Numbered from the stretch's first letter, positions 14,370-63,638 are shown. The stretch is DNA of 64,000 nt from an uncultured Ruminococcus sp. (GCA_946534605.1 CAMNCU010000003.1:954-64953); one strand, 5' to 3'. The notes: generated by a model from the letters alone, not told the origin. Numbers and translations: made by a program.

Positions 14370-15605
14370 ATGAAATTCAAAAAATTAATCAGTGTGCTTG
14401 CTTCGTGCGTTCTGCTTTCCGGGTGCGGTGCTGTCAGCGAAACGCCCGGTAATAATCTGACTGCTTCCGTGCAGAGCCAGCCCGTCAGCGTATCCGTTCC
14501 GGAAGGTGATTTTCAAACCTCACAGATGCAGTTTGCAGTCAAGCTTTTTCAGGAAAGCGTTTCCGAAACACCGGACGGCAATGTTCTTGTTTCTCCGCTG
14601 TCGGTAATGCTTGCACTCTCCATGACCGCCAACGGCGCGAACGGGCAGACGCTCTCCGAAATGGAACAGGTTCTCGGCAGTCCGCTTTCTGACCTGAATC
14701 AGAATCTTTACAGTTATACGCACAATCTGCCGTCCGGCGAAAATGCGAAGCTTTCTCTTGCAAATTCCATCTGGTTCAGAGACAGAGAAGATTTCAGCGT
14801 CAAACAGGAATTTTTACAGACTGATGCGGATTATTATCAGGCGGATGTATTTCAAGAGGCGTTCGACTCGAAAACATGCAATAAAATCAACAGCTGGGTG
14901 AAACAGAAAACAGACGGCATGATTCCGCAGATTATTGATACTATCGATACCGATACAATGATGTATTTAATCAATGCGCTGTCGTTCGATGCCGAATGGC
15001 TTCATATCTACGAAGATACGGATATTCGTGAAAATCAGAAATTCACGAATGCTGACGGCACAGAACAGACTGTCACGATGATGTCCTCAATAGAACCCAG
15101 ATATCTGAAATCCGAACATGCTAAAGGCTTTATTAAGCCATATAAAGATGGCTATAGTTTCGCGGCGATTCTGCCGGAAGAAAATCTTTCCGTAGATGAT
15201 TATATCGCTTCCCTGAATCCGGAATTGCTTTCTGATATGCTGAACAATGCGCAGAATACCGCTGTCTTTGCCCAGATGCCGAAATTCAAGTCAGAATATG
15301 ATACTTCTCTTGTGAATGCCCTGAAAGCTATGGGAATGCCGACAGCATTTTCCGGTACTGCCGATTTTTCCGGCATAAGTGATACATCTCTGTATATCAG
15401 TGATGTGCTTCACAAGACGTTTATCGAAGTCGACGAGCGCGGAACAAAAGCCGGAGCTGTGACCGCAGTCGCAGTAGCGGAAGGTGCAGGACTCGCATCA
15501 GATGAAAAAACAATTATTCTTGACAGACCATTTGTTTATATGATTATTGATGATGAAAATCATCTGCCTGTATTTATCGGCACAGTCCGGGAAATGCAGA
15601 ATTAA
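14370..15605 (+). CDS. Serpin (serine protease inhibitor), lipoprotein
   Basis: Lipobox LLSGC. Serpin body ending in hinge and reactive-centre loop DERGTKAGAVTAVAVAEGAGLASDEKTIILDRPFVYMI. Confidence 0.85.
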   Translation: MKFKKLISVLASCVLLSGCGAVSETPGNNLTASVQSQPVSVSVPEGDFQTSQMQFAVKLFQESVSETPDGNVLVSPLSVMLALSMTANGANGQTLSEMEQVLGSPLSDLNQNLYSYTHNLPSGENAKLSLANSIWFRDREDFSVKQEFLQTDADYYQADVFQEAFDSKTCNKINSWVKQKTDGMIPQIIDTIDTDTMMYLINALSFDAEWLHIYEDTDIRENQKFTNADGTEQTVTMMSSIEPRYLKSEHAKGFIKPYKDGYSFAAILPEENLSVDDYIASLNPELLSDMLNNAQNTAVFAQMPKFKSEYDTSLVNALKAMGMPTAFSGTADFSGISDTSLYISDVLHKTFIEVDERGTKAGAVTAVAVAEGAGLASDEKTIILDRPFVYMIIDDENHLPVFIGTVREMQN

Positions 15606-15618
15606 GGAGGAATGTTAC

Positions 15619-17001
15619 ATGAAATCGAAAAAATTATTATCAGCCGTTCTGTTGTGCAGTCTTCTGCTGACCGGGTGCGGAGGACAGACCGAATCCCTCA
15701 CACCGCCGGAATCCGCTGTGATTCCTGAAACAGAAACAACGACAGAAACGGAAGTCATCACAGAATCGGAAACAGAAACCCAAACAGAAATTATTACAGA
15801 ACCCGAAACAGAACCGCTTACAGAAACCGAATCCGAAACAGAAACAAACAGTTCTGTTTCCACATGGGAGGATATGACAATGAATGACGCATTCAAAACG
15901 AATCAGATGAATTTAGCAGTTTCACTGCTTCAGAAAGAAACCGAACGGCATTCTAACCAGAATGTTCTGATTTCGCCGTTTTCGATTTCGACGGCGTTAG
16001 CCCTGACCGCTGACGGTTCAGCCAGTGAAACCCGGAAACAGATGGAAGATTTCTTCGGTCAGGATATCGAAACTTTCGGCACGGATTTGAAAAACTATAC
16101 CGAAAATCTGCCTTCTACAGAAAACAGCAAGTGCGTTTCTGCAAATTCGGTCTGGATAAAACAGACAGATGAAATCACCGTAAAAGAAGATTTTCTCAAA
16201 ACTGCCGATGAACTCTATCATGCCGGCGTGTTTGAAGAACCCTTCGATTCCAGCACAAAAGATAAAATTAACGGCTGGGTCAGCGAACATACAGATAATA
16301 TGATTGATAAAATTATTGATGATATCAGCGAAGATGCTGTCATGTATCTTATCAACGCGCTGACATTCGACGCGCAGTGGGATGACCAGTATGAAGATTA
16401 TCAGATTGAAGACGGTACTTTCACGGCTCTGAACGGTACGGAACGAACCGTTTCCATGATGCAGAGTACAGAAGGCAGCTACTATGAAGATGAACATGCT
16501 GTCGGATTCAGCAAGCCTTACCGTTACGGCTATAGTTTTGTTGCACTGCTTCCGGATGAAGATACGGATATTCTGGATTATGTCAGCACGCTCGACGGCG
16601 AAAGAATTCATAATCTTCTGGAGAATCCGCAGAGATATGATGTCAATGCCAAACTTCCGGCATTCGAGACAGACTACAGCACAAGCCTGAAAGATTCTCT
16701 GGAATCCTCCATGCCAGATGCGTTCTCTCAGGAAAGTGCCGATTTTTCCAGGATGGCGGATGTCAATAATCCTGAAAAGAATCTCTATATCAATGATGTG
16801 ATTCATAAAACTTATATCTCCGTCGATAAGAACGGCACGAAAGCCGCCGCTGTGACGGCTGTCGAAATGTACGCTACTGCATCTGCCAGAGAAGAAAGAG
16901 AAATCAAAGAAGTCATTCTCGACCGCCCCTTTGTCTACCTGATTGTTGATAATGCAAATATGCTCCCGTTATTTATGGGAATTGTCACAGATATTGCTTG
17001 A
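15619..17001 (+). CDS. Serpin, lipoprotein with a Thr/Glu-rich linker
   Basis: ATG 15619 after AAGGAGG. Lipobox LLLTGC, a (T/E)-rich linker of about 45 aa, then a serpin body with hinge NGTKAAAVTAVEMYATASAREEREIKEVILDRPF. Confidence 0.85.
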   Translation: MKSKKLLSAVLLCSLLLTGCGGQTESLTPPESAVIPETETTTETEVITESETETQTEIITEPETEPLTETESETETNSSVSTWEDMTMNDAFKTNQMNLAVSLLQKETERHSNQNVLISPFSISTALALTADGSASETRKQMEDFFGQDIETFGTDLKNYTENLPSTENSKCVSANSVWIKQTDEITVKEDFLKTADELYHAGVFEEPFDSSTKDKINGWVSEHTDNMIDKIIDDISEDAVMYLINALTFDAQWDDQYEDYQIEDGTFTALNGTERTVSMMQSTEGSYYEDEHAVGFSKPYRYGYSFVALLPDEDTDILDYVSTLDGERIHNLLENPQRYDVNAKLPAFETDYSTSLKDSLESSMPDAFSQESADFSRMADVNNPEKNLYINDVIHKTYISVDKNGTKAAAVTAVEMYATASAREEREIKEVILDRPFVYLIVDNANMLPLFMGIVTDIA

Positions 17002-57188: not shown

Positions 57189-57222
57189 GAAAAACGGCTC
57201 ACCCGTAGGCAAGCCGCTTTTC
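57189..57222 (-). terminator. Terminator of the dockerin/serpin gene string
   Basis: Minus-strand hairpin AAAAGCGGCT...AGCCGTTTTT followed by a T-rich tract. Confidence 0.45.
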
Positions 57223-57268
57223 TTTGAGATATATCTAAGATTTCAGGAGAGTAAAATGCTGATGAAAT

Positions 57269-58297
57269 TTATTCTGTCAGACCGACAATCATTTTCATAA
57301 TCGTCAGAGAATCGGAAGCGTCGATTTTCTCGTCCTTGTTGGCATCCGCGGCGAGTTCCTGCGCAGAATTCAGCTTTTCTTTGCCGAGAATTGCTTTATT
57401 GAGAATAATCACATCCAGAATATTCAGTTTGTCGTCCAGATTCAAATCCCCGGCTTTGATTTCTACTGCTGCATCTGTAGGGAAAATTTCTTCCGGGTCA
57501 GGCTTTTTCACTATACGGAATTCAAAATCACATAATTCCAAAAAGCCCTGTTCCTGACAGTAATTTTTTATCCGGTCAATGTCTTCCTTTGTGTATGCTG
57601 TCACCGCTATGCTCATGCCTGTAACATTGAAAATACTCCCGTAATGATTGCGGGATACAAAACCCTCATATCCGTTGCTTTCCATGAATGCCTGAATCTG
57701 TTTTGCAGCCTCTGTTATGGACATTACCAGATTCTCATCCATCTGATAGACAAGATGATAGTCAATCGTATATTTTTCCGAAAAGCCCTGTTCTTCGCAG
57801 TAAGCTTCCATCAATTCTTTTATTTTTGTGCTTGCACACATGACAGTGAGAGAATTGTGGAAATAATCATAGAAAACGCGGTATGCATAGTCAGCCCCTG
57901 CCAGTTCACCGAGATATTTTTCCGTCTGCAATGCGGCGGAAATCAGCGCGTTCTTTTCTTCTTCGGGAAGTTCCGGAAGAATTTCACCGTCAAATTTCAG
58001 GAAAAACTGATATGTCACACCGTCTGTCAGATTTTCCTGCTGACAATATTCCATCATGTTGCTTTTTACATTTTCATAATGCGCCTGACTTCCGGTGTTT
58101 ACTACAACAGAAATGAGGTTCTGTTCTTCGTCACAGGTGATAGTATACAGCTGTACTGACGGCGGAATTGCATCTGCAATCTGATTGCAGATACTTTGTA
58201 CTGAAATTTCCGTTTCTCCGGCGAAAACGGGAATACTGATTTCGGACTGTATACAGCACAGGAACGCCAGCACAGCGGCTAAGAGTTTCTTTTTCAT
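57269..58297 (-). CDS. Secreted protein: three 'YCxEQGF' repeat modules plus a C-terminal dockerin
   Basis: ATG 58297 after GAGGTG, then a signal peptide. Modules end in MEYCQQENL, MEAYCEEQGF and KNYCQEQGF. Dockerin KAGDLNLDDKLNILDVIILNKAILGKEKLNSAQELAADANKDEKIDASDSLTIMKMIVGL (57272..57457). Confidence 0.65.
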   Translation of the reverse strand: MKKKLLAAVLAFLCCIQSEISIPVFAGETEISVQSICNQIADAIPPSVQLYTITCDEEQNLISVVVNTGSQAHYENVKSNMMEYCQQENLTDGVTYQFFLKFDGEILPELPEEEKNALISAALQTEKYLGELAGADYAYRVFYDYFHNSLTVMCASTKIKELMEAYCEEQGFSEKYTIDYHLVYQMDENLVMSITEAAKQIQAFMESNGYEGFVSRNHYGSIFNVTGMSIAVTAYTKEDIDRIKNYCQEQGFLELCDFEFRIVKKPDPEEIFPTDAAVEIKAGDLNLDDKLNILDVIILNKAILGKEKLNSAQELAADANKDEKIDASDSLTIMKMIVGLTE

Positions 58298-58330
58298 AAA
58301 AAGCACCTCGTTTCTGAAAATTTAAATAAT

Positions 58331-60418
58331 TTATGATTCAATGGACTTCACCGCGCCCATAAATACGGGCAGATGATTTTCCATATCGACAATCATATAG
58401 ACGAACGGTCTGTCGAGCGTGACAGTTTTATAGTCCATTACAGCGGTTACGCCGTCCATCTGGACGACTGTCACAGCGGCGGCACGAGTGCCTTCTTCGG
58501 TCACGTCGATATGCGTCTTATGCAGAACTTCCCCGATATGCAGAATATCCCATTCTGCCTGCATATCCGCCATTCTGGTGAAGTCGGCGTTCAGGGGGTC
58601 GAACGCGGTCGGCATACCCATTTCACAGAGGGGCTTTTTCAGCGTGATATCATAATCATAGCTGAACTTCGGCATTGATGTGTAAGTCTTGACAGAAACC
58701 GGGCTGGAAAGCGTATTCTGTAATGATTCGGCAGTCATGCCGGAAATATATTCATCTACAGAAATTCCCTCGTTCGGAAGCATTGCCGCGAAGGCGTATC
58801 TTCCGCCGTCATAATATTTATAGAATCCGGTCGCGGAATCGTCTTCCAGATAGGCATATTCTTCGGAATGCATCATGCTGACGGTTTCGGCAGAGCCGTC
58901 CCAGGCGGTAAAATCTCCGTCATGAACCTGATATTCCGAATCATAGGGATTCTGCCATTTTGCGTCGAAAGTGACGGCGTTAATCAGATACATCAGAGTA
59001 TCGGGGTCAATGGGCTGTTCAGGGTTGAGGACTTCCGGAATCATCCGGTCGGTCTTGTTGCTGACCCAGTTGTTAATATCTGTAACGGTAGAATCATCAA
59101 ACGGGGCTTTATAGGCATCGGCAGAGTAATAATCCGCATTGACTTTCAGGAAGTCCGGCAGAACCTGAAATCTTTCTTCAAAGTCGCGATACCAGATAGA
59201 ATTTGCCGTTGACAGCCGGCATTTGGCAGTATCCGGCTGACTGATTCGCTGTGTATACAGATACTGATTCAAATCATTGAGAGGCAGTCCGCCGAGAGTC
59301 TGTTCCATCTCGGAGAGCGTCTGCCCGTCCGCGCCGTTGGCAGTCATCGCGAGAGCCTGCATCACGGAATAAGGCGAAACAAGAACATTCTGTTCCGGAG
59401 TTTCCTGTTCGGCTTTCTGGAACAGATTCAGATAAAAGCCTGTCTGCGCCTGAATAAACGCATCATCAGCGGCTTTGCCCTCAACAGCATCTGACTGTAC
59501 AGACTTGCTTAAATTCACAGAAGCCGGGCTGAGAGCCTTGTCACTGGGTTTTTCGAGCAGTCCGACGATAGCTTTCATAATCGCCAGAGAATCGGAAGCG
59601 TCTATTTTCTCGTCCTTGTTGGCATCGGCGGCGAGTTCCTGAACGGAGTTCAGCTTTTCTTTGCCGAGAATCGCTTTATTGAGAATGATAACATCTAAAA
59701 TATTCAGTTTATCGTCAAGATTCAGGTCTCCGGCTTTGACAGTTACGTCCATACCTTCTACACCGGTTTCTGTAGGGTCTGGTTCTTCATCATCAGATGT
59801 CCATGCAATAAAAATAAAAGCATACTTTTCTGTAAAGCCCTGTTCCTGACAGAACGCCTTTACGGTTTCAAGCTGAGAATCTGCTTTTTCCCTGACTGCC
59901 TGATTTTCTTCTGAACTTGAGAACATTTCCGTTTCTGAAAGATATGCTGTCACCTGAATCAAACCATTGTTAGGAGCGGCAGTGATATAGTTCAGCTGAT
60001 TTTCATCAGCGAACTGATTGATTTGTTCAGCAATCTTCTGCTGACCGTTTTCCTCGGCGGTAAAGCGAATATCGAAATCATTCAGAAAGCCCTGTTCTTC
60101 GCAGTAAGCTTTGACGGTATCGAGATTCGCGCAAATCTTTTCCCAGTCGTAGTTGCTGTCATGGGAGGGAATTTCTATCGTCACGAAGATAACGGGTTCA
60201 GGTGTATAATCCACATTGCAGTGGATATATACAAAATTCTTTTTAAAGATAAAATTACTGATTTGATTACTCACATCACTGGAAGTCATTCTCCGGGTTT
60301 CTTCCTGCGTTTCTTCTTCGGTCGGCGCGAGGGTCACGGCATTTGCATTCAGGCTGATTCCGGTCTGGAAGCAGAGCAGTAAAGCGGCAATTCCTGCAAA
60401 AATTCTTGTTTTTTTCAT
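58331..60418 (-). CDS. Secreted protein: two 'YCxEQGF' modules, dockerin, serpin
   Basis: ATG 60418 after GAGGTG. Modules with VKAYCEEQGF and VKAFCQEQGF, dockerin (59558..59737), then a full serpin with hinge/RCL EEGTRAAAVTVVQMDGVTAVMDYKTVTLDRPF. Confidence 0.8.
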   Translation of the reverse strand: MKKTRIFAGIAALLLCFQTGISLNANAVTLAPTEEETQEETRRMTSSDVSNQISNFIFKKNFVYIHCNVDYTPEPVIFVTIEIPSHDSNYDWEKICANLDTVKAYCEEQGFLNDFDIRFTAEENGQQKIAEQINQFADENQLNYITAAPNNGLIQVTAYLSETEMFSSSEENQAVREKADSQLETVKAFCQEQGFTEKYAFIFIAWTSDDEEPDPTETGVEGMDVTVKAGDLNLDDKLNILDVIILNKAILGKEKLNSVQELAADANKDEKIDASDSLAIMKAIVGLLEKPSDKALSPASVNLSKSVQSDAVEGKAADDAFIQAQTGFYLNLFQKAEQETPEQNVLVSPYSVMQALAMTANGADGQTLSEMEQTLGGLPLNDLNQYLYTQRISQPDTAKCRLSTANSIWYRDFEERFQVLPDFLKVNADYYSADAYKAPFDDSTVTDINNWVSNKTDRMIPEVLNPEQPIDPDTLMYLINAVTFDAKWQNPYDSEYQVHDGDFTAWDGSAETVSMMHSEEYAYLEDDSATGFYKYYDGGRYAFAAMLPNEGISVDEYISGMTAESLQNTLSSPVSVKTYTSMPKFSYDYDITLKKPLCEMGMPTAFDPLNADFTRMADMQAEWDILHIGEVLHKTHIDVTEEGTRAAAVTVVQMDGVTAVMDYKTVTLDRPFVYMIVDMENHLPVFMGAVKSIES

Positions 60419-60452
60419 AATCAAGCACCTCATTTCTGAAAATTTAAATAAT

Positions 60453-61985
60453 TTATGATTCAATAGATTTCACCGCGCCCATGAATACAGGCAGATGATT
60501 TTCCATATCAACAATCATATAGACGAACGGTCTGTCGAGCGTGACGGTTTTATGTTCTTCAACGGCATCATTTCCGGCTAACATGACGGCTGTCACAGCG
60601 GCGGCGCGAGTGCCTTCTTCGGTCACGTCGATATGGGTCTTATGCAGAACCTGCGCGATATGCAGAACATCGCTAGGGTCTTTCATCTCCGCCATTCTGG
60701 TGAAATCGGCATTCCATTCGTCGAACGCGGTCGGCATACCCATTTCACAGAGGGGCTTTTTCAGCGTGATATCATAATCATAGCTGAACTTCGGCATTGA
60801 TGTGTAAGTCTTGACAGAAACCGGATGGGAAAGCGTATTCTGTAATGATTCGGCAGTCATACCGGAAATATAGTCATCTACGGAAATTCCCTCGTTCGGG
60901 AGCAGAGCCGCGAATGCGTATCTTCCGCCGTCATAATATTTATAGAATCCGGTCGCGGAAGCATCTTCCAGATAGTAATATTCTTCAGAGTTCATCATGC
61001 TGACTTTCTGCGCCGAGCCGTCCCAGGCGGTGAAATCGCCGTCATGAACCTGATATTCGGAATCATAGGGAGACATCCACTTGGCATCGAATGTGACGGC
61101 GTTGATTAAGAACATCAGCATATTAGGGGCAATCGGCTGTTCAGGGTCGAGAACGCCCGGAATCATTCTGTCGGTCTTATTGCTGACCCAGTTGTTGACA
61201 TCTGTAATGGTAGAATCATCAAACGGGGCTTTGAACGCATCGGCGGAATAATAATCCGCGTTGACTTTCAGGAAGTCCGGCAGAACCTGAAATCTTTCTT
61301 CAAAATCTCTGTACCAGATGGAATTTGCCGTTGACAGCCGGCATTTCTCTGTATTCGGCTGAGAGGTTCTTTGTGTATACAGATACTGATTCAAATCATC
61401 CAGAGGAAGTCCGCCGAGGGTCTGTTCCATCTCGGAGAGGGTCTGACCGTCCGCACCGTTGGCAGTCATGGCGAGAGCCTGCATCACCGAATAAGGCGAA
61501 ACCAGAACATTCTGTTCCGGGGTCTGTGCTTCGGCTTTCTGGAACAGATTCAGGTAAAAGCCCGTCTGTGCCTGAATAAACGCATCATCGGCGGCTTTGC
61601 CCTCGACAGCATCAGATTTGACGGCTTTACTCAAATTCGTGGAAGCCGGGCTGAGAGCCTTGTCACTGGGCTTTTCGAGCAGACCGACGATAGCTTTCAT
61701 AATCGCCAGAGAATCGGAAGCGTCGATTTTCTCGTCCTTGTTGGCATCGGCGGCGAGTTCCTGCACGGAAGTCAGCTTTTCTTTGCCGAGAATCGCTTTA
61801 TTGAGAATGATAACATCTAAAATATTCAGTTTATCGTCAAGATTCAGGTCTCCGGCTTTGACAACGACTTCAGCATTATCGCCAATTTCCGTAGGTTCTT
61901 CGGCGGCATTCGCGGTCAGGCTGATTCCGGTCTGGAAGCAGAGCAGTAAAGCGGCAATTCCTGCAAAAATTCTTGTTTTTTTCAT
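60453..61985 (-). CDS. Secreted dockerin-serpin
   Basis: ATG 61985 after AAGGAG, then a signal peptide, dockerin (61680..61859) and a serpin with hinge/RCL EEGTRAAAVTAVMLAGNDAVEEHKTVTLDRPF. Confidence 0.8.
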   Translation of the reverse strand: MKKTRIFAGIAALLLCFQTGISLTANAAEEPTEIGDNAEVVVKAGDLNLDDKLNILDVIILNKAILGKEKLTSVQELAADANKDEKIDASDSLAIMKAIVGLLEKPSDKALSPASTNLSKAVKSDAVEGKAADDAFIQAQTGFYLNLFQKAEAQTPEQNVLVSPYSVMQALAMTANGADGQTLSEMEQTLGGLPLDDLNQYLYTQRTSQPNTEKCRLSTANSIWYRDFEERFQVLPDFLKVNADYYSADAFKAPFDDSTITDVNNWVSNKTDRMIPGVLDPEQPIAPNMLMFLINAVTFDAKWMSPYDSEYQVHDGDFTAWDGSAQKVSMMNSEEYYYLEDASATGFYKYYDGGRYAFAALLPNEGISVDDYISGMTAESLQNTLSHPVSVKTYTSMPKFSYDYDITLKKPLCEMGMPTAFDEWNADFTRMAEMKDPSDVLHIAQVLHKTHIDVTEEGTRAAAVTAVMLAGNDAVEEHKTVTLDRPFVYMIVDMENHLPVFMGAVKSIES

Positions 61986-62015: not shown

Positions 62016-62990
62016 TTATTGATTTTGATTTTCGGAATTGAAAAACAGATTCCGGAATTCTTCTTCGCTGATGTCAGCACTGCGGAACAGATAGTAATTT
62101 TCTTCGCCCTCGAACTGTACCGCGGCGGCTGTTCCGTAAGGCATTCCCTCGATAAGATAGGCATTGCCGATATTTTCCACTAATTTCTGTGAGCCGTCCG
62201 GATAGCGGACAGTGACATCAATGGTATCGAACCATTCGCCGACGAGCTCCGGGCTGACAGTGTTTCCGGTCAGGCAGAAGACAGCATCTTCTCCGGAATC
62301 GTTGCCCAAGCTGTTTTTCGCCAGATGAAGCGTAATTCTCGGAAAGGCGAACGCGATAGACGCCCCCTGTTCGGTGAGTTCGTCCGGAACGGTATCCGGA
62401 ATTTCTTCTGTCTGTCCTGCGATGATGGGAAGCGTTTCCGATTCAGCAGGAATCGTCGTTGTTTCGGGGATGGTTTCCGTCGGCGGAACGGTTTCCGGAA
62501 TGATTTCCGGCTGTTCGGTAATGGGAACAGCTTCCGGAACTTCCACAAGTTCAGGGGCTTCGGTGACAGGTTCAGGCGCGTTCTGAATCGGCTGAACGGT
62601 CTGTGTTGTTGTCTGAATCATCACAGAAGTTTGGATTTCTGCGGAAGTCTGTATAGCTGTTGTACTGATTTCGGGAAGCGTCTCGGACGGGCTTTCCGGA
62701 ACGGTTTCGGGAATTCTTGTTTCTGTGATGATAGCCGGAACGGATTCCGGAACTGTTGTTGCAGATGTTGTTTCTGATTCTGTTTGAACGGCAGTTTCTT
62801 CCGGAACGTTCGGGACTGCCGGAAAGTTCTGCCGGTTCTGCCACGGATGCAGACCCATCACCACCACGAAGCCGAAACTTGCCATCACGGGCGCATACCG
62901 GAAAAACAGAACCTTCTGCCGTTGTTTCTTTCTGAGATAGTCATCACGCGCGGAAAAGACCGCCTGCGCCATCTGCTGATATGTTTTCAT
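62016..62990 (-). CDS. Putative anti-sigma factor (single-pass membrane protein with an extracytoplasmic domain)
   Basis: ATG 62990 overlaps the sigma stop (ATGA). Short cytoplasmic N-terminus, TM segment (YAPVMASFGFVVVMGL), a Thr/Pro/Glu-rich linker and a globular C-terminal domain. Confidence 0.55.
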   Translation of the reverse strand: MKTYQQMAQAVFSARDDYLRKKQRQKVLFFRYAPVMASFGFVVVMGLHPWQNRQNFPAVPNVPEETAVQTESETTSATTVPESVPAIITETRIPETVPESPSETLPEISTTAIQTSAEIQTSVMIQTTTQTVQPIQNAPEPVTEAPELVEVPEAVPITEQPEIIPETVPPTETIPETTTIPAESETLPIIAGQTEEIPDTVPDELTEQGASIAFAFPRITLHLAKNSLGNDSGEDAVFCLTGNTVSPELVGEWFDTIDVTVRYPDGSQKLVENIGNAYLIEGMPYGTAAAVQFEGEENYYLFRSADISEEEFRNLFFNSENQNQ

Positions 62991-63526
62991 AAGCAACCGC
63001 CTTCCTTTTCGAGTTGAAGTTTCAGTGATTTTCTGGCATTGTACAGAAGATTTTCGACCTGTTTTCTGGTTTTCCGCATAATCCGGGCGATTTCGTCATT
63101 GCTGAACTGCTCGAAATAAGAAAGATAAATCGCCTGCTGATAGTCCGGTTTCAGATTCCGGATAGCCTGATGCACGATAATTTTCTGTTCTTCCTGAATG
63201 TAGTCCTGTTCGATATCCTGTAAATCGGCGAATTCGGCGGCATCGTCGAGCGGAACGGACGGGCGGTGTTTCCGTAGCATATCGCGCGTGACGTTTCTGC
63301 CGATAGCGTAAAGCCATGTTTTAAAAGAAGAATTTCCGCGGAACTTAGGCTTTTTAATCGCAAGTCTGATGAAAGTTTCCTGCACACAGTCTTCTGCATC
63401 ACTGATATTGTTGGTAAAACTGACGAGATACAACAGCAGACCGTCTTTATAGTCGCGGATTAATTCCGTCATGCCGCTGTCATCTCCCTCGATATAACGG
63501 CGGTAGCTACTTGCACCGTTATCCAT
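62987..63526 (-). CDS. ECF-type sigma-70 family RNA polymerase sigma factor
   Basis: Region 2 (DAEDCVQETFIRL...FKTWLYAIGRN) and region 4 (LSYFEQFSNDEIARIMRKTRKQVENLLYNARKSL). The start could be ATG 63526 or GTG 63556. Confidence 0.8.
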   Translation of the reverse strand: MDNGASSYRRYIEGDDSGMTELIRDYKDGLLLYLVSFTNNISDAEDCVQETFIRLAIKKPKFRGNSSFKTWLYAIGRNVTRDMLRKHRPSVPLDDAAEFADLQDIEQDYIQEEQKIIVHQAIRNLKPDYQQAIYLSYFEQFSNDEIARIMRKTRKQVENLLYNARKSLKLQLEKEGGCL

Positions 63527-63602
63527 GAATTGGGGAACTCCTTTCTGCGCTTTCACTTATTAGACGAGAGGAGCGAAGCAAAACACTAAGTGAATTTTAA
63601 AA

Positions 63603-63638
63603 TTTTTTGAAAAAAATTTCTCCCGGCATTCCGGGAGA
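63603..63638 (-). terminator. Intrinsic terminator after queA
   Basis: TCTCCCGG / CCGGGAGA hairpin followed on the minus strand by a T7 run (63611..63617). Confidence 0.7.

Follow-up and report, generated by a model that had tools for sequence, protein, structure and literature searches.

A small, previously unclassified extracellular domain accompanies cellulosomal dockerins and serpins in a Ruminococcus-like genus and is predicted to adopt an alpha-beta-beta-alpha-beta fold

Ruminococcal cellulosomes contain many dockerin proteins that bear modules of unknown function. In Ruminococcus flavefaciens FD-1, tandem gene pairs encode proteins composed of a signal peptide, a dockerin and a serpin (PMC2930009, Table 1; PMC5301203), for which a role in shielding the cellulosome from proteolysis has been proposed (PMC2930009; PMC5301203). 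Like these SIGN-Doc-SERPIN pairs, PinA of Clostridium thermocellum is a cellulosomal dockerin-serpin. The signal peptide-dockerin-serpin layout and the tandem genes recur in the stretch of 64,000 nucleotides from an uncultured Ruminococcus sp. that we analyzed (hereafter the window), with two differences. The published Doc-Serpin of FD-1 has no N-terminal module, whereas here one to three new modules precede the dockerin; moreover, unlike in FD-1, sister genes bear a module array without a serpin.

The features of the locus are collected in Table 1. Pfam recognized Dockerin_1 and Serpin in P0001, P0002 and P0003 and no further family, and P0003 is a module-free paralogue in the same locus as the two module-bearing genes. 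The type-I dockerin (PF00404) was assigned in all three proteins with 36-38.6 bits against a cut-off of 22.9, and the serpin (PF00079) in two of them (E 2.7e-83 and 1.1e-80), where the match spans positions 2-367 of the 370-position profile. Both serpins carry the hinge EEGTRAAAVT, which we take to be of the inhibitory type, and they share 88% DNA identity. The dockerin of P0001 is likewise close to the other two dockerins of the window (88-90% DNA identity over 182 nt), from both of which it differs, as read by eye, at about 6 of 64 residues. A terminator scan found no minus-strand terminator-like site from the sigma factor gene to the start of spoIIIAA at 57212. The sigma/anti-sigma pair is conserved at related loci, as seen by tblastn synteny and by Pfam matches there to Sigma70_r2/r4_2.

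Table 1. Coordinates of the genes, domains and module copies, counted from the first nucleotide of the window
Feature	Position	Strand	Description	Basis
P0001 gene	57269..58297	minus	342 aa: signal peptide, 3 modules, type-I dockerin	ORF list and translation
P0001 dockerin	57287..57454	minus	aa 282-337, E 1.2e-9	Pfam Dockerin_1
P0001 module 3	57503..57736	minus	aa 188-265, motif YCQEQGF	HMM envelope, iE 6e-15
P0001 module 2	57740..57964	minus	aa 112-186, motif YCEEQGF	HMM envelope, iE 1e-7
P0001 module 1	57989..58210	minus	aa 30-103, motif YCQQENL	HMM envelope, iE 7.5e-7
P0002 gene	58331..60418	minus	695 aa: signal peptide, 2 modules, dockerin, serpin	ORF and Pfam
P0002 serpin domain	58349..59449	minus	aa 324-690, E 2.7e-83	Pfam Serpin
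P0002 dockerin	59567..59734	minus	aa 229-284	Pfam Dockerin_1
P0002 module 2	59795..60055	minus	aa 122-208, motif FCQEQGF	HMM envelope, iE 1.7e-11
P0002 module 1	60047..60301	minus	aa 40-124, motif YCEEQGF	HMM envelope, iE 1.7e-7
P0003 gene	60453..61985	minus	510 aa: signal peptide, dockerin, serpin, no module	ORF and Pfam
Membrane anti-sigma-like protein	62016..62996	minus	directly upstream of the module/dockerin/serpin genes
ECF sigma factor	62987..63556	minus	directly upstream of the module/dockerin/serpin genes

The sequence-only reading of the window had proposed five copies of one repeated module, and both their number and their positions stand. A profile HMM built solely from foreign modules (other genomes and metagenomes), with the window copies left out, detects all five with independent E-values of 7.5e-7 to 6e-15, and its envelopes lie within about 20 nt of the ranges first given. 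In the rest of the genome the same profile found no sixth copy, the next best ORF having an E-value of 0.37. P0001 has the motif [YF]C[EQ][EQ][EQ][GN][FL] at aa 84, 166 and 246 and P0002 at aa 105 and 189, whereas all other six-frame ORFs of 60 aa or more in the genome of 2.5 Mb are without it. We conclude that a genuine extracellular domain of about 75-90 residues, not classified before, is present here five times. Module 1 of P0001 falls in a "position-1" clade with extra Cys residues in helix 1 and strand 1, and the module arrays are acidic, with a net charge of -7 to -12 each.

In the module region every Pfam-A and NCBIfam family stays below its cut-off, in keeping with the earlier description of the module as unrecognized. 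The best sub-threshold families were Rad60-SLD (17.5 bits against 23.8) and DUF4318 (17.4 bits against 27). The DUF4318 lead was dropped, as the match was weak, involved 3 of 16 modules and covered helix 1 only; DUF4318 was absent from 41 related genomes, in a search whose control was likewise empty. A match of one module to Pro-kuma_activ (E 0.058, 14 bits against a cut-off of 23.5) is noise. Word-index homology searches returned the query and one relative only, and an exhaustive profile search was needed to reach further members. It gave 13 matches at E <= 1e-3 among 1.84 billion representatives, 11 with the architecture SP-(module)n-dockerin(-serpin); P0012 (HNH_repeat) and P0011 (Rad60-SLD x8), also among the 13, are false positives. 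The clusters of the family hold 1-3 members, and the sole name given to any of them is "dockerin type I repeat-containing protein". Marginal family-level matches to the N-terminal regions of MiaB/RimO, DprA and DnaA were set aside as chance, since all share a "YCxxxG" helix end.

The module also resembles SUMO locally. Helix 1 of SUMO-2 ends in KAYCERQGL and then passes into a strand, and the likeness to the KAYCEEQGF of the module, which passes into strand 3, is striking. SUMO-type matches came from a PDB profile (4bkg, E 5e-4), from a poly-SUMO-like protein (E 4e-7) and from Rad60-SLD (E 0.004-0.02); the match is local (about 15-20 residues), and all of these are inflated by repeats and fall short of the Pfam cut-off (15-17.5 bits against 23.8). 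The beta-grasp fold has five strands around one helix, whereas the module is without strands 4-5 and has an extra N-terminal helix, and the 50 top Foldseek matches of each of the two models described below include nothing ubiquitin-like. With a local motif, repeat-inflated E-values and no fold match, homology to SUMO or to the beta-grasp was rejected; the resemblance is most simply read as convergence on a helix C-cap and core motif.

Modelled alone with AF2, module 3 of P0001 gave a pLDDT of 94.1 and a pTM of 0.83, with elements H2-21, E26-35, E38-48, H51-63 and E71-76. In a model of the whole array the three modules of P0001 each fold alike, with block-mean pLDDT of 77-97 (H6-16, E24-29, E34-40, H44-60, E68-75 for module 1; H85-106, E113-117, E122-127, H130-142, E150-155 for module 2). 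The order H-E-E-H-E was obtained in four independent module predictions and matches the helix, two strands, motif-ending helix and final strand that had been read from the sequence. According to these models, the module is a two-layer, three-stranded alpha-beta-beta-alpha-beta sandwich. The columns of high information are I15, F18 and I19 in helix 1, followed by I/V57, Y/F60, C61, E63, G65, F66, T67, E68, Y70, I72 and F74; those of the beta1-beta2 hairpin, which varies in sequence and length, are low in information. In the model the YCxEQGF motif lies at the end of helix 2 and in the ensuing turn, a location that gives it a structural rather than a catalytic look. Together with the conservation pattern, the model suggests a structural and not a catalytic role for the near-invariant (I/V)KxYCxEQGF(T)(E)(K)Y motif, which would form the buried face of helix 2 with a C-terminal Gly cap and the turn into strand 3, burial being deduced from the periodicity of the sequence. 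The conservation columns show mostly polar residues at the outward-facing positions of strand 3, which makes an evident hydrophobic interface less likely.

The 50 top-ranking Foldseek matches of each model are ring-building motif (RBM) domains (SpoIIIAH, PrgH/PrgK, CdsD, YscD, FliF), BON domains (OsmY, DolP, BonA) and KH-like domains. The best matches of the single module were SpoIIIAH (3tuf/3uz0, TMq 0.56-0.59, prob 0.96), PrgK, PrgH and the BON domain of DolP, all single-module E-values being above 0.01 and so not significant. The three-module model matched the periplasmic domain of PrgH (E 2e-6, prob 1.0) as well as CdsD (2e-5), OsmY (1.8e-4), YscD (4e-4), DolP (2e-3), BonA (9e-3) and FliF; the TM-scores of the significant matches were low (0.19-0.31), implying that the repeated topology alone is common and that the arrangement of the domains differs.

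In RBM domains (PrgH/PrgK/EscJ, YscD/CdsD/MxiG, FliF, SpoIIIAH/SpoIIIAG/SpoIIIAF) two helices lie on one face of a three-stranded sheet, and the module, compared with them by predicted element order and by Foldseek, appears to have the same alpha-beta-beta-alpha-beta order. PrgH, YscD and CdsD carry three such domains in tandem on one chain, as P0001 does. RBM proteins are membrane-anchored parts of envelope machines, whereas the module protein is secreted and dockerin-anchored, and Pfam gave no YscJ_FliF, SpoIIIAH or Secretin_N match that would point to a sequence relationship. An origin from the RBM proteins of the neighboring spoIIIA operon was rejected at the sequence level, the module profile aligning to SpoIIIAH, SpoIIIAF and SpoIIIAG of the same genome with hhalign probabilities of at most 2%, and the adjacency to spoIIIA looks like coincidental synteny. 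The predicted fold class and the tandem layout are also those of the BON proteins OsmY, DolP and BonA (PF04972), although no module matched the Pfam BON profile at E <= 1. BON proteins reside in the periplasm of diderm bacteria, DolP being phospholipid-binding according to the title of PDB entry 7a2d, whereas the acidic module is extracellular and belongs to a Gram-positive producer of cellulosomes. It is conceivable, if quite unlikely, that the module is an extracellular, dockerin-anchored counterpart of the RBM and BON domains, which would either self-assemble or bind a partner, so that module-dockerin proteins and module-dockerin-serpins make up multivalent serpin clusters on the scaffoldin, or serve as an exosite capturing particular, probably basic, proteases for the adjacent serpin. 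Either version would amount to a bacterial counterpart of the control of serpins by cofactors or exosites, and to the first use of an RBM-like assembly domain outside a cell-envelope machine.

The earlier reading had also seen in the alpha/beta pattern a likeness to small protease propeptides or inhibitors. Propeptides are often small alpha/beta sandwiches, and those of the I9 and related types, at about 80 residues and tied to protease biology, are two-layer ones; OsmY, whose fold class the module would have in common (E 1.8e-4, as above), has been described as a periplasmic chaperone. With the persistent fusion or adjacency to serpins, these likenesses speak for a module that, in line with the speculative idea of that reading, is itself an inhibitor, propeptide-like or chaperone-like, adding a second inhibitory activity or helping the serpin to fold. 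The topology does not bear this out: the I9, carboxypeptidase and kumamolisin propeptides have four strands in the order beta-alpha-beta-beta-alpha-beta, whereas the module model has three and begins with a helix, and neither inhibitors nor propeptides turn up in the 50 top Foldseek matches of the two models. Furthermore, no Pfam inhibitor family rises above noise, the module has no conserved candidate for a reactive loop, its motif has the periodicity of a buried helix face, and most dockerin-serpins of the genus are without the module. We regard an inhibitory or chaperone function as very unlikely.

Another candidate function is carbohydrate binding, by which the module would take the serpins, or their scaffoldin position, to a plant cell-wall polymer. 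Several modules of this cellulosomal kind later proved to be carbohydrate-binding modules (CBMs), and the strands of the present one are rich in Tyr, Phe and Trp. The conserved aromatics, however, follow a core periodicity and the outward strand positions are mostly charged or polar. Known CBMs are mostly beta-sandwiches or beta-trefoils, of which a three-stranded alpha/beta sandwich is atypical, and neither a CBM family match in Pfam nor a CBM or lectin among the best 50 Foldseek matches of either model was found. A new CBM is a reading to which we give a small chance.

The domain is restricted to one rumen Oscillospiraceae (Ruminococcus-like) genus and, within it, to a minority of the species: 8 of 50 carry it, against 38 of 50 for the serpin, leaving 30 species with dockerin-serpins devoid of the module. 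The association of module, dockerin and serpin first noted in the window holds across the species of the genus. In all 24 module genes catalogued, a tandem of 1-4 modules lies between the signal peptide and a type-I dockerin, and 9 of the 24 are fused to a serpin. Nearly all copies reside in one variable locus, ordered queA - ECF sigma/anti-sigma - [module/dockerin/serpin genes] - spoIIIA; with two exceptions (L017 and L021), all loci with sufficient context are bounded by queA/sigma/anti-sigma on one side and spoIIIAA on the other, and contain a dockerin-serpin gene. Since almost all copies descend from this one locus, the link to serpins is not statistically independent, and the fusions and adjacency may reflect recombination between common signal-peptide and dockerin segments rather than functional coupling. 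In L017 the homologue P0015 lies in an unrelated LRR-rich locus without a serpin. In other species of the genus, LRR_5-like repeats or different unknown modules stand N-terminal to the dockerin-serpin, and a 39-module HMM found no module in the N-terminal extensions of the genus' other serpins; the presence of other domains at the module's place fits a targeting or binding role for whatever occupies that spot.

This evolutionary record bears on whether the module is a passive spacer, stalk or solubility module without a specific ligand, the module-dockerin genes being recombination by-products of a fast-rearranging locus. At long range the modules diverge strongly, with 27-31% identity where the dockerin keeps 57-59% and the serpin about 64%, and their variable copy number and hairpin length, like the polar residues facing outward from the strand, would suit a spacer. 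So would a dN/dS near 1 in one close pair, a value resting on about 5 changes, and the signal-peptide-plus-dockerin mini-genes present in the same loci, which indicate that the locus tolerates "empty" dockerin proteins. On the other hand, the modules are under purifying selection (between G044 and L010 their dN/dS is 0.27, compared with 0.20 in the dockerin and 0.19 in the serpin), and position-specific clades are kept across species (support 97/99 for M1 and 99/99 for M2), which implies that the three-module array is older than the species splits. Many species keep module-dockerin genes in which the array is the sole non-dockerin content, and E63, Q64, T67 and E68 would form a conserved exposed polar patch. 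Finally, ordinary cellulosomal linkers are Pro/Thr-rich and unstructured, whereas the module is predicted to be a folded domain. We consider a mere spacer unlikely, though the most serious of the alternatives.

Our working hypothesis is instead that the modules are non-catalytic "X-type" cellulosomal modules offering a surface for protein binding or assembly, a role suggested by their architecture. Near-identical dockerins would bring the module-dockerin proteins and the dockerin-serpins to the same cohesins, where the acidic arrays would recruit or orient something for the neighboring serpins, or oligomerize them; the fused module-dockerin-serpin genes would be the covalent version of the same partnership. 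Taken as a whole, the explanation of a genuine alpha-beta-beta-alpha-beta domain with a structural motif, acting as a binding or assembly module with cellulosome-anchored serpins, seems to us probable by a modest degree. A more intimate link to the dockerin, in which the last module packs on it and stabilizes or extends the cohesin interface like the X modules of type-II/III dyads, is suggested by the invariable position of the module directly N-terminal to the dockerin. We hold this to be highly improbable: an acidic linker of about 10-25 residues parts the two, which AF2 predicts at low confidence and unpacked (pLDDT < 50 over residues 243-280), and the known X modules of such dyads are of a different, Ig-like fold. 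In addition, the dockerin of P0003, presumably functional since its Pfam match is intact, has no preceding module in a window whose dockerins are 88-90% identical in DNA.

One of the many modules of cellulosomal dockerin proteins is now a discrete family, with boundaries, a profile, a confident predicted fold and a genomic and architectural signature. Should it bind a partner or oligomerize, it would reveal the way in which protease inhibitors anchored to the cellulosome are targeted or clustered, and the ring-building/BON fold would gain a secreted, Gram-positive context; were it a mere spacer, the gain would be a minor one of annotation. The general impact is limited either way, because the family is very small and taxonomically narrow. 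Across 400 genomes from 166 genera of the Oscillospiraceae, the search matched its own genus and, in addition, one partial module-dockerin ORF in G428; with a signal peptide, a partial module and a dockerin in 197 aa, this ORF may be a real remote member of the family.

Three minus-strand genes of the window follow one another in the same direction with gaps of 33-34 nt (57269..61985) and encode P0003, P0002, and P0001, in which Pfam and NCBIfam recognise Dockerin_1 and Serpin and nothing further. The residues without a family in P0002 and P0001 hold copies of an ~80-aa module marked by the motif [YF]C[EQ][EQ][EQ][GN][FL], which P0001 has at residues 84, 166, and 246 and P0002 at residues 105 and 189; the motif-to-motif spacing is 80-84 residues, and no other six-frame ORF of the 2.5-Mb genome contains the motif. 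Since the window copies share just 13-29% pairwise identity, we tested them with a profile built exclusively from homologous modules of other genomes. This foreign-module profile detected all five copies at independent E values of 1e-7 to 6e-15 among the genome ORFs, the next ORF coming at E 0.37. Both the motif scan and the profile thus bear out the five-copy repeat that the sequence-only reading had located in these two genes. All five modules are acidic (pI 4.0-4.6, net charge -7 to -12). Modules at position 1 of the array, in P0001 and in three related loci (L009, L012, L008), carry two additional cysteines that are missing at positions 2 and 3, one in helix 1 (SICNQI, QACKQI) and one ending strand 1 (YTITCDEEQN); these may pair in a disulfide or bind a metal.

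Positions of the features discussed (window coordinates unless a related locus, L, is named)
Feature	Position	Strand	Description
P0003	60453..61985	-	510 aa: signal peptide, dockerin, serpin
P0002	58331..60418	-	695 aa: signal peptide, ~180 residues without family, dockerin, serpin
P0001	57269..58297	-	342 aa: signal peptide, ~240 residues without family, dockerin
P0001 module envelopes	57989..58210, 57740..57964, 57503..57736	-	profile search; first envelope = position 1
P0002 module envelopes	60047..60301, 59795..60055	-	profile search
P0002 reactive-centre loop region	58331..58480	-	...AAAVTVVQMDGVTAVMDYKTV...
P0003 reactive-centre loop region	60453..60600	-	...AAAVTAVMLAGNDAVEEHKTV...
Read-through of P0001 TAA stop	57224..57268	-	E*ISSAFYSPEILDISQRKAA
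Anti-sigma-like membrane protein	62016..62996	-	no Pfam match
Terminator-like hairpin after queA	63619..63638	-	8 pairs, 6 GC, T-run
Serpin gene	~14442..15599	+	
Serpin gene	~15844..16995	+	
P0015	L017 6001..7383		460 aa; Logan SRR10504711 contig
Mini-gene	L010 1958..2260		signal peptide + dockerin
Mini-gene	L013 1578..1898		signal peptide + dockerin
Mini-gene	L019 1023..1340		signal peptide + dockerin
Mini-gene	L041 (G035)		106-aa ORF

The AlphaFold2 model of module 3 of P0001, computed from an alignment of 16 modules (mean pLDDT 94.1, pTM 0.83), comprises a helix (2-21), two strands (26-35 and 38-48), a second helix (51-63), and a last strand (71-76), in exact agreement with the element order previously read from the sequence. 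When mature P0001 was modelled separately from a six-sequence alignment, all three modules folded alike, with block-mean pLDDT values of 77-97 over the modules, at a pTM of 0.58 and with a poorly modelled dockerin. Across 39 modules, conservation concentrates on one face of helix 1 (I15, F18, I19), on one face of helix 2 (I/V57, Y/F60, C61), and on E63, G65, F66, T67, E68, Y70, I72, and F74, which make up the helix-2 C-cap, the turn, and those residues of strand 3 that face inward and are probably buried. Both the sequence and the length of the beta1-beta2 hairpin are variable, and the motif cysteine is present in 38 of the 39 copies. We read the 'YCxEQGF' motif as determining the fold and not as an active site.

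A Foldseek search of the PDB with a single module returned nothing below E 0.01; its best matches, SpoIIIAH (3tuf/3uz0; prob 0.96, TMq 0.56-0.59), OsmC, the Rel catalytic fragment, BolA, PrgK, PrgH, CdsD, the DolP BON domain, and the MamM C-terminal domain among them, are small alpha/beta sandwiches of a generic kind. With the three-module model, significant matches were obtained to the PrgH periplasmic domain (E 2e-6, prob 1.0), CdsD (E 2e-5), OsmY with its dual BON (E 1.8e-4), and YscD (E 4e-4), followed by MxiG-type rings, DolP, BonA, FliF, and KH-domain arrays. TM-scores were low (0.19-0.31); the model thus shares with these structures the repeated alpha-beta-beta-alpha-beta unit but not the way the domains are arranged. 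The PrgH periplasmic domain consists of three tandem ring-building motifs (RBMs), and P0001 carries three modules in tandem. Protease propeptide, inhibitor, carbohydrate-binding module (CBM), and ubiquitin-like folds were all missing from the best 50 matches of either model. The earlier proposal was correct in tying an unclassified module to dockerin and serpin, but the likeness to inhibitor or propeptide folds that it had also seen, which we specifically tested, was not found among those best 50 matches, and we now consider a role as inhibitor or chaperone quite improbable. A new CBM, likewise without a counterpart among those 50 matches, seems to us scarcely more credible.

The module profile, run exhaustively with HMMER against 1.84 billion cluster representatives, retrieved only 13 proteins at E <= 1e-3, 11 of which combine a signal peptide, one to four modules, and a dockerin, with or without a serpin. 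The other two, a poly-SUMO-like protein and an HNH_repeat protein, match via the short helix-end motif alone and were rejected. Clusters of module proteins have one to three members each, sources name them only as 'dockerin type I repeat-containing protein [Oscillospiraceae bacterium]', and the named relatives come from rumen MAGs, e.g., of roe deer rumen. Whole-genome searches found the module in 8 of 50 species representatives of the genus (the rumen Ruminococcus-like genus of the source genome), and dockerin-serpins in 38 of the 50 and in 19 of 21 high-quality genomes. Among 400 genomes sampled across 166 genera of the family, convincing module matches were confined to the same genus. One ORF of 197 aa in genome G428, reading as signal peptide, partial module, and dockerin, is a possible remote member; the other marginal matches were MiaB/RimO, DprA, and DnaA N-termini and were discarded. 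We found no published description of the module and, in the library searched, no paper pairing a dockerin with an RBM.

The dockerin lies C-terminal to the modules in all 24 module-bearing genes catalogued, and in 9 of them a serpin continues after it (one, two, or three modules), the rest being one to four modules plus dockerin. Module and dockerin might be read together as an X-Doc dyad, an idea to which we give very little credence. The module family is real, unclassified, narrowly distributed, extracellular, and invariably dockerin-borne, with an RBM/BON-like fold. The family itself is new; its fold class and the type of system it belongs to are both known ones.

Apart from P0015 and the G428 ORF, all copies whose context can be read sit in one syntenic locus, ordered queA, ECF sigma factor, anti-sigma-like membrane protein, a variable gene set, and spoIIIAA. 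The variable set draws on module-dockerin, module-dockerin-serpin, dockerin-serpin, and signal-peptide-plus-dockerin-only genes. In the window, the three dockerins share 88-90% DNA identity and the two serpin genes a signal-peptide segment at 96%, whereas the modules show no DNA similarity except a 26-nt stretch, so that fusions and fissions could result from recombination between the common segments. The signal-peptide-plus-dockerin mini-genes (100-106 aa), which in related loci lie between the module genes and the serpin genes, could be cohesin 'caps', competitors, or recombination debris. P0015, the sole clear module gene not in the queA-spoIIIA locus, consists of one module, an ~120-aa unassigned segment, a dockerin, and an ~145-aa unassigned C-terminal domain; its neighbourhood is rich in LRR_5 proteins and has no serpin.

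The module tree resolves position-specific clades M1 (97/99) and M2 (99/99), and the three-module array therefore predates the species splits. At long evolutionary range, the modules have changed faster (27-31% identity) than their dockerin (57-59%) and serpin (about 64%) partners. They are under purifying selection, with dN/dS values between genome G044 and a rumen metagenome contig of 0.27 for modules, 0.20 for dockerin, and 0.19 for serpin; a second, near-identical pair gave ~1.0 for modules, a value resting on just ~5 changes.

We propose that the module is a non-catalytic accessory partner of cellulosomal serpins. By Rosetta-stone logic, this role is suggested by their fusion in some species and adjacency in others, where near-identical dockerins would put module proteins and serpins onto the same cohesins. 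It is also favoured by the persistence under purifying selection of free-standing module-dockerin genes, with the module array as sole cargo, and by the protein-binding LRR repeats or other modules that other species of the genus bear at this same N-terminal position of their dockerin-serpins. The associations are not independent events, since all copies stem from essentially one locus. That the module is a passive spacer appears unlikely, though it is the alternative we would take most seriously. Ruminococcus flavefaciens FD-1 has tandem signal peptide-dockerin-serpin genes (PMC2930009, Table 1), the order also seen in P0003, and their products are thought to guard the cellulosome against proteolysis or to serve regulation (PMC5301203).

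A strong terminator-like hairpin follows queA, and between the sigma gene and the start of spoIIIAA the scan detected no terminator-like site on the minus strand; a single transcription unit may span the sigma/anti-sigma, serpin, and module genes and continue into spoIIIA. The anti-sigma-like protein has a C-terminal extracellular part of ~120 residues (...VGEWFDTVDVTV.YPDG...). Its N-terminal and C-terminal parts show 43-73% identity in relatives, and the unalignable middle segment resembles an acidic Pro/Thr/Glu-rich linker; the protein could carry an unclassified sensor domain.

The P0002 and P0003 serpins share 88% DNA identity and differ in their reactive-centre loops, which suggests different protease specificities. 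With the two plus-strand genes, the window encodes four serpins; the plus-strand pair is 44-49% identical to P0003 across the serpin domain and gave no dockerin match, the alignments starting at P0003 residue 113-116, past the dockerin. The sequence beyond the P0001 stop, joined to the dockerin match in the genome search and weakly like the P0003 dockerin-serpin linker EKPSDKALSPASTNLSKAV, may be what remains of a serpin part since lost, but three-module dockerin genes in other species likewise end directly past the dockerin. The serpin locus is a module-shuffling hotspot. Other species of the genus (L031-L036, L040) show varied N-terminal or internal additions to their dockerin-serpins, including an ~150-aa insert separating dockerin and serpin (L031) and other unassigned N-terminal domains (L033, L034), and the dockerin-serpins of L029 and L030 (genomes G001 and G039) carry leucine-rich repeats, by eye of the LRR_5/BspA type.
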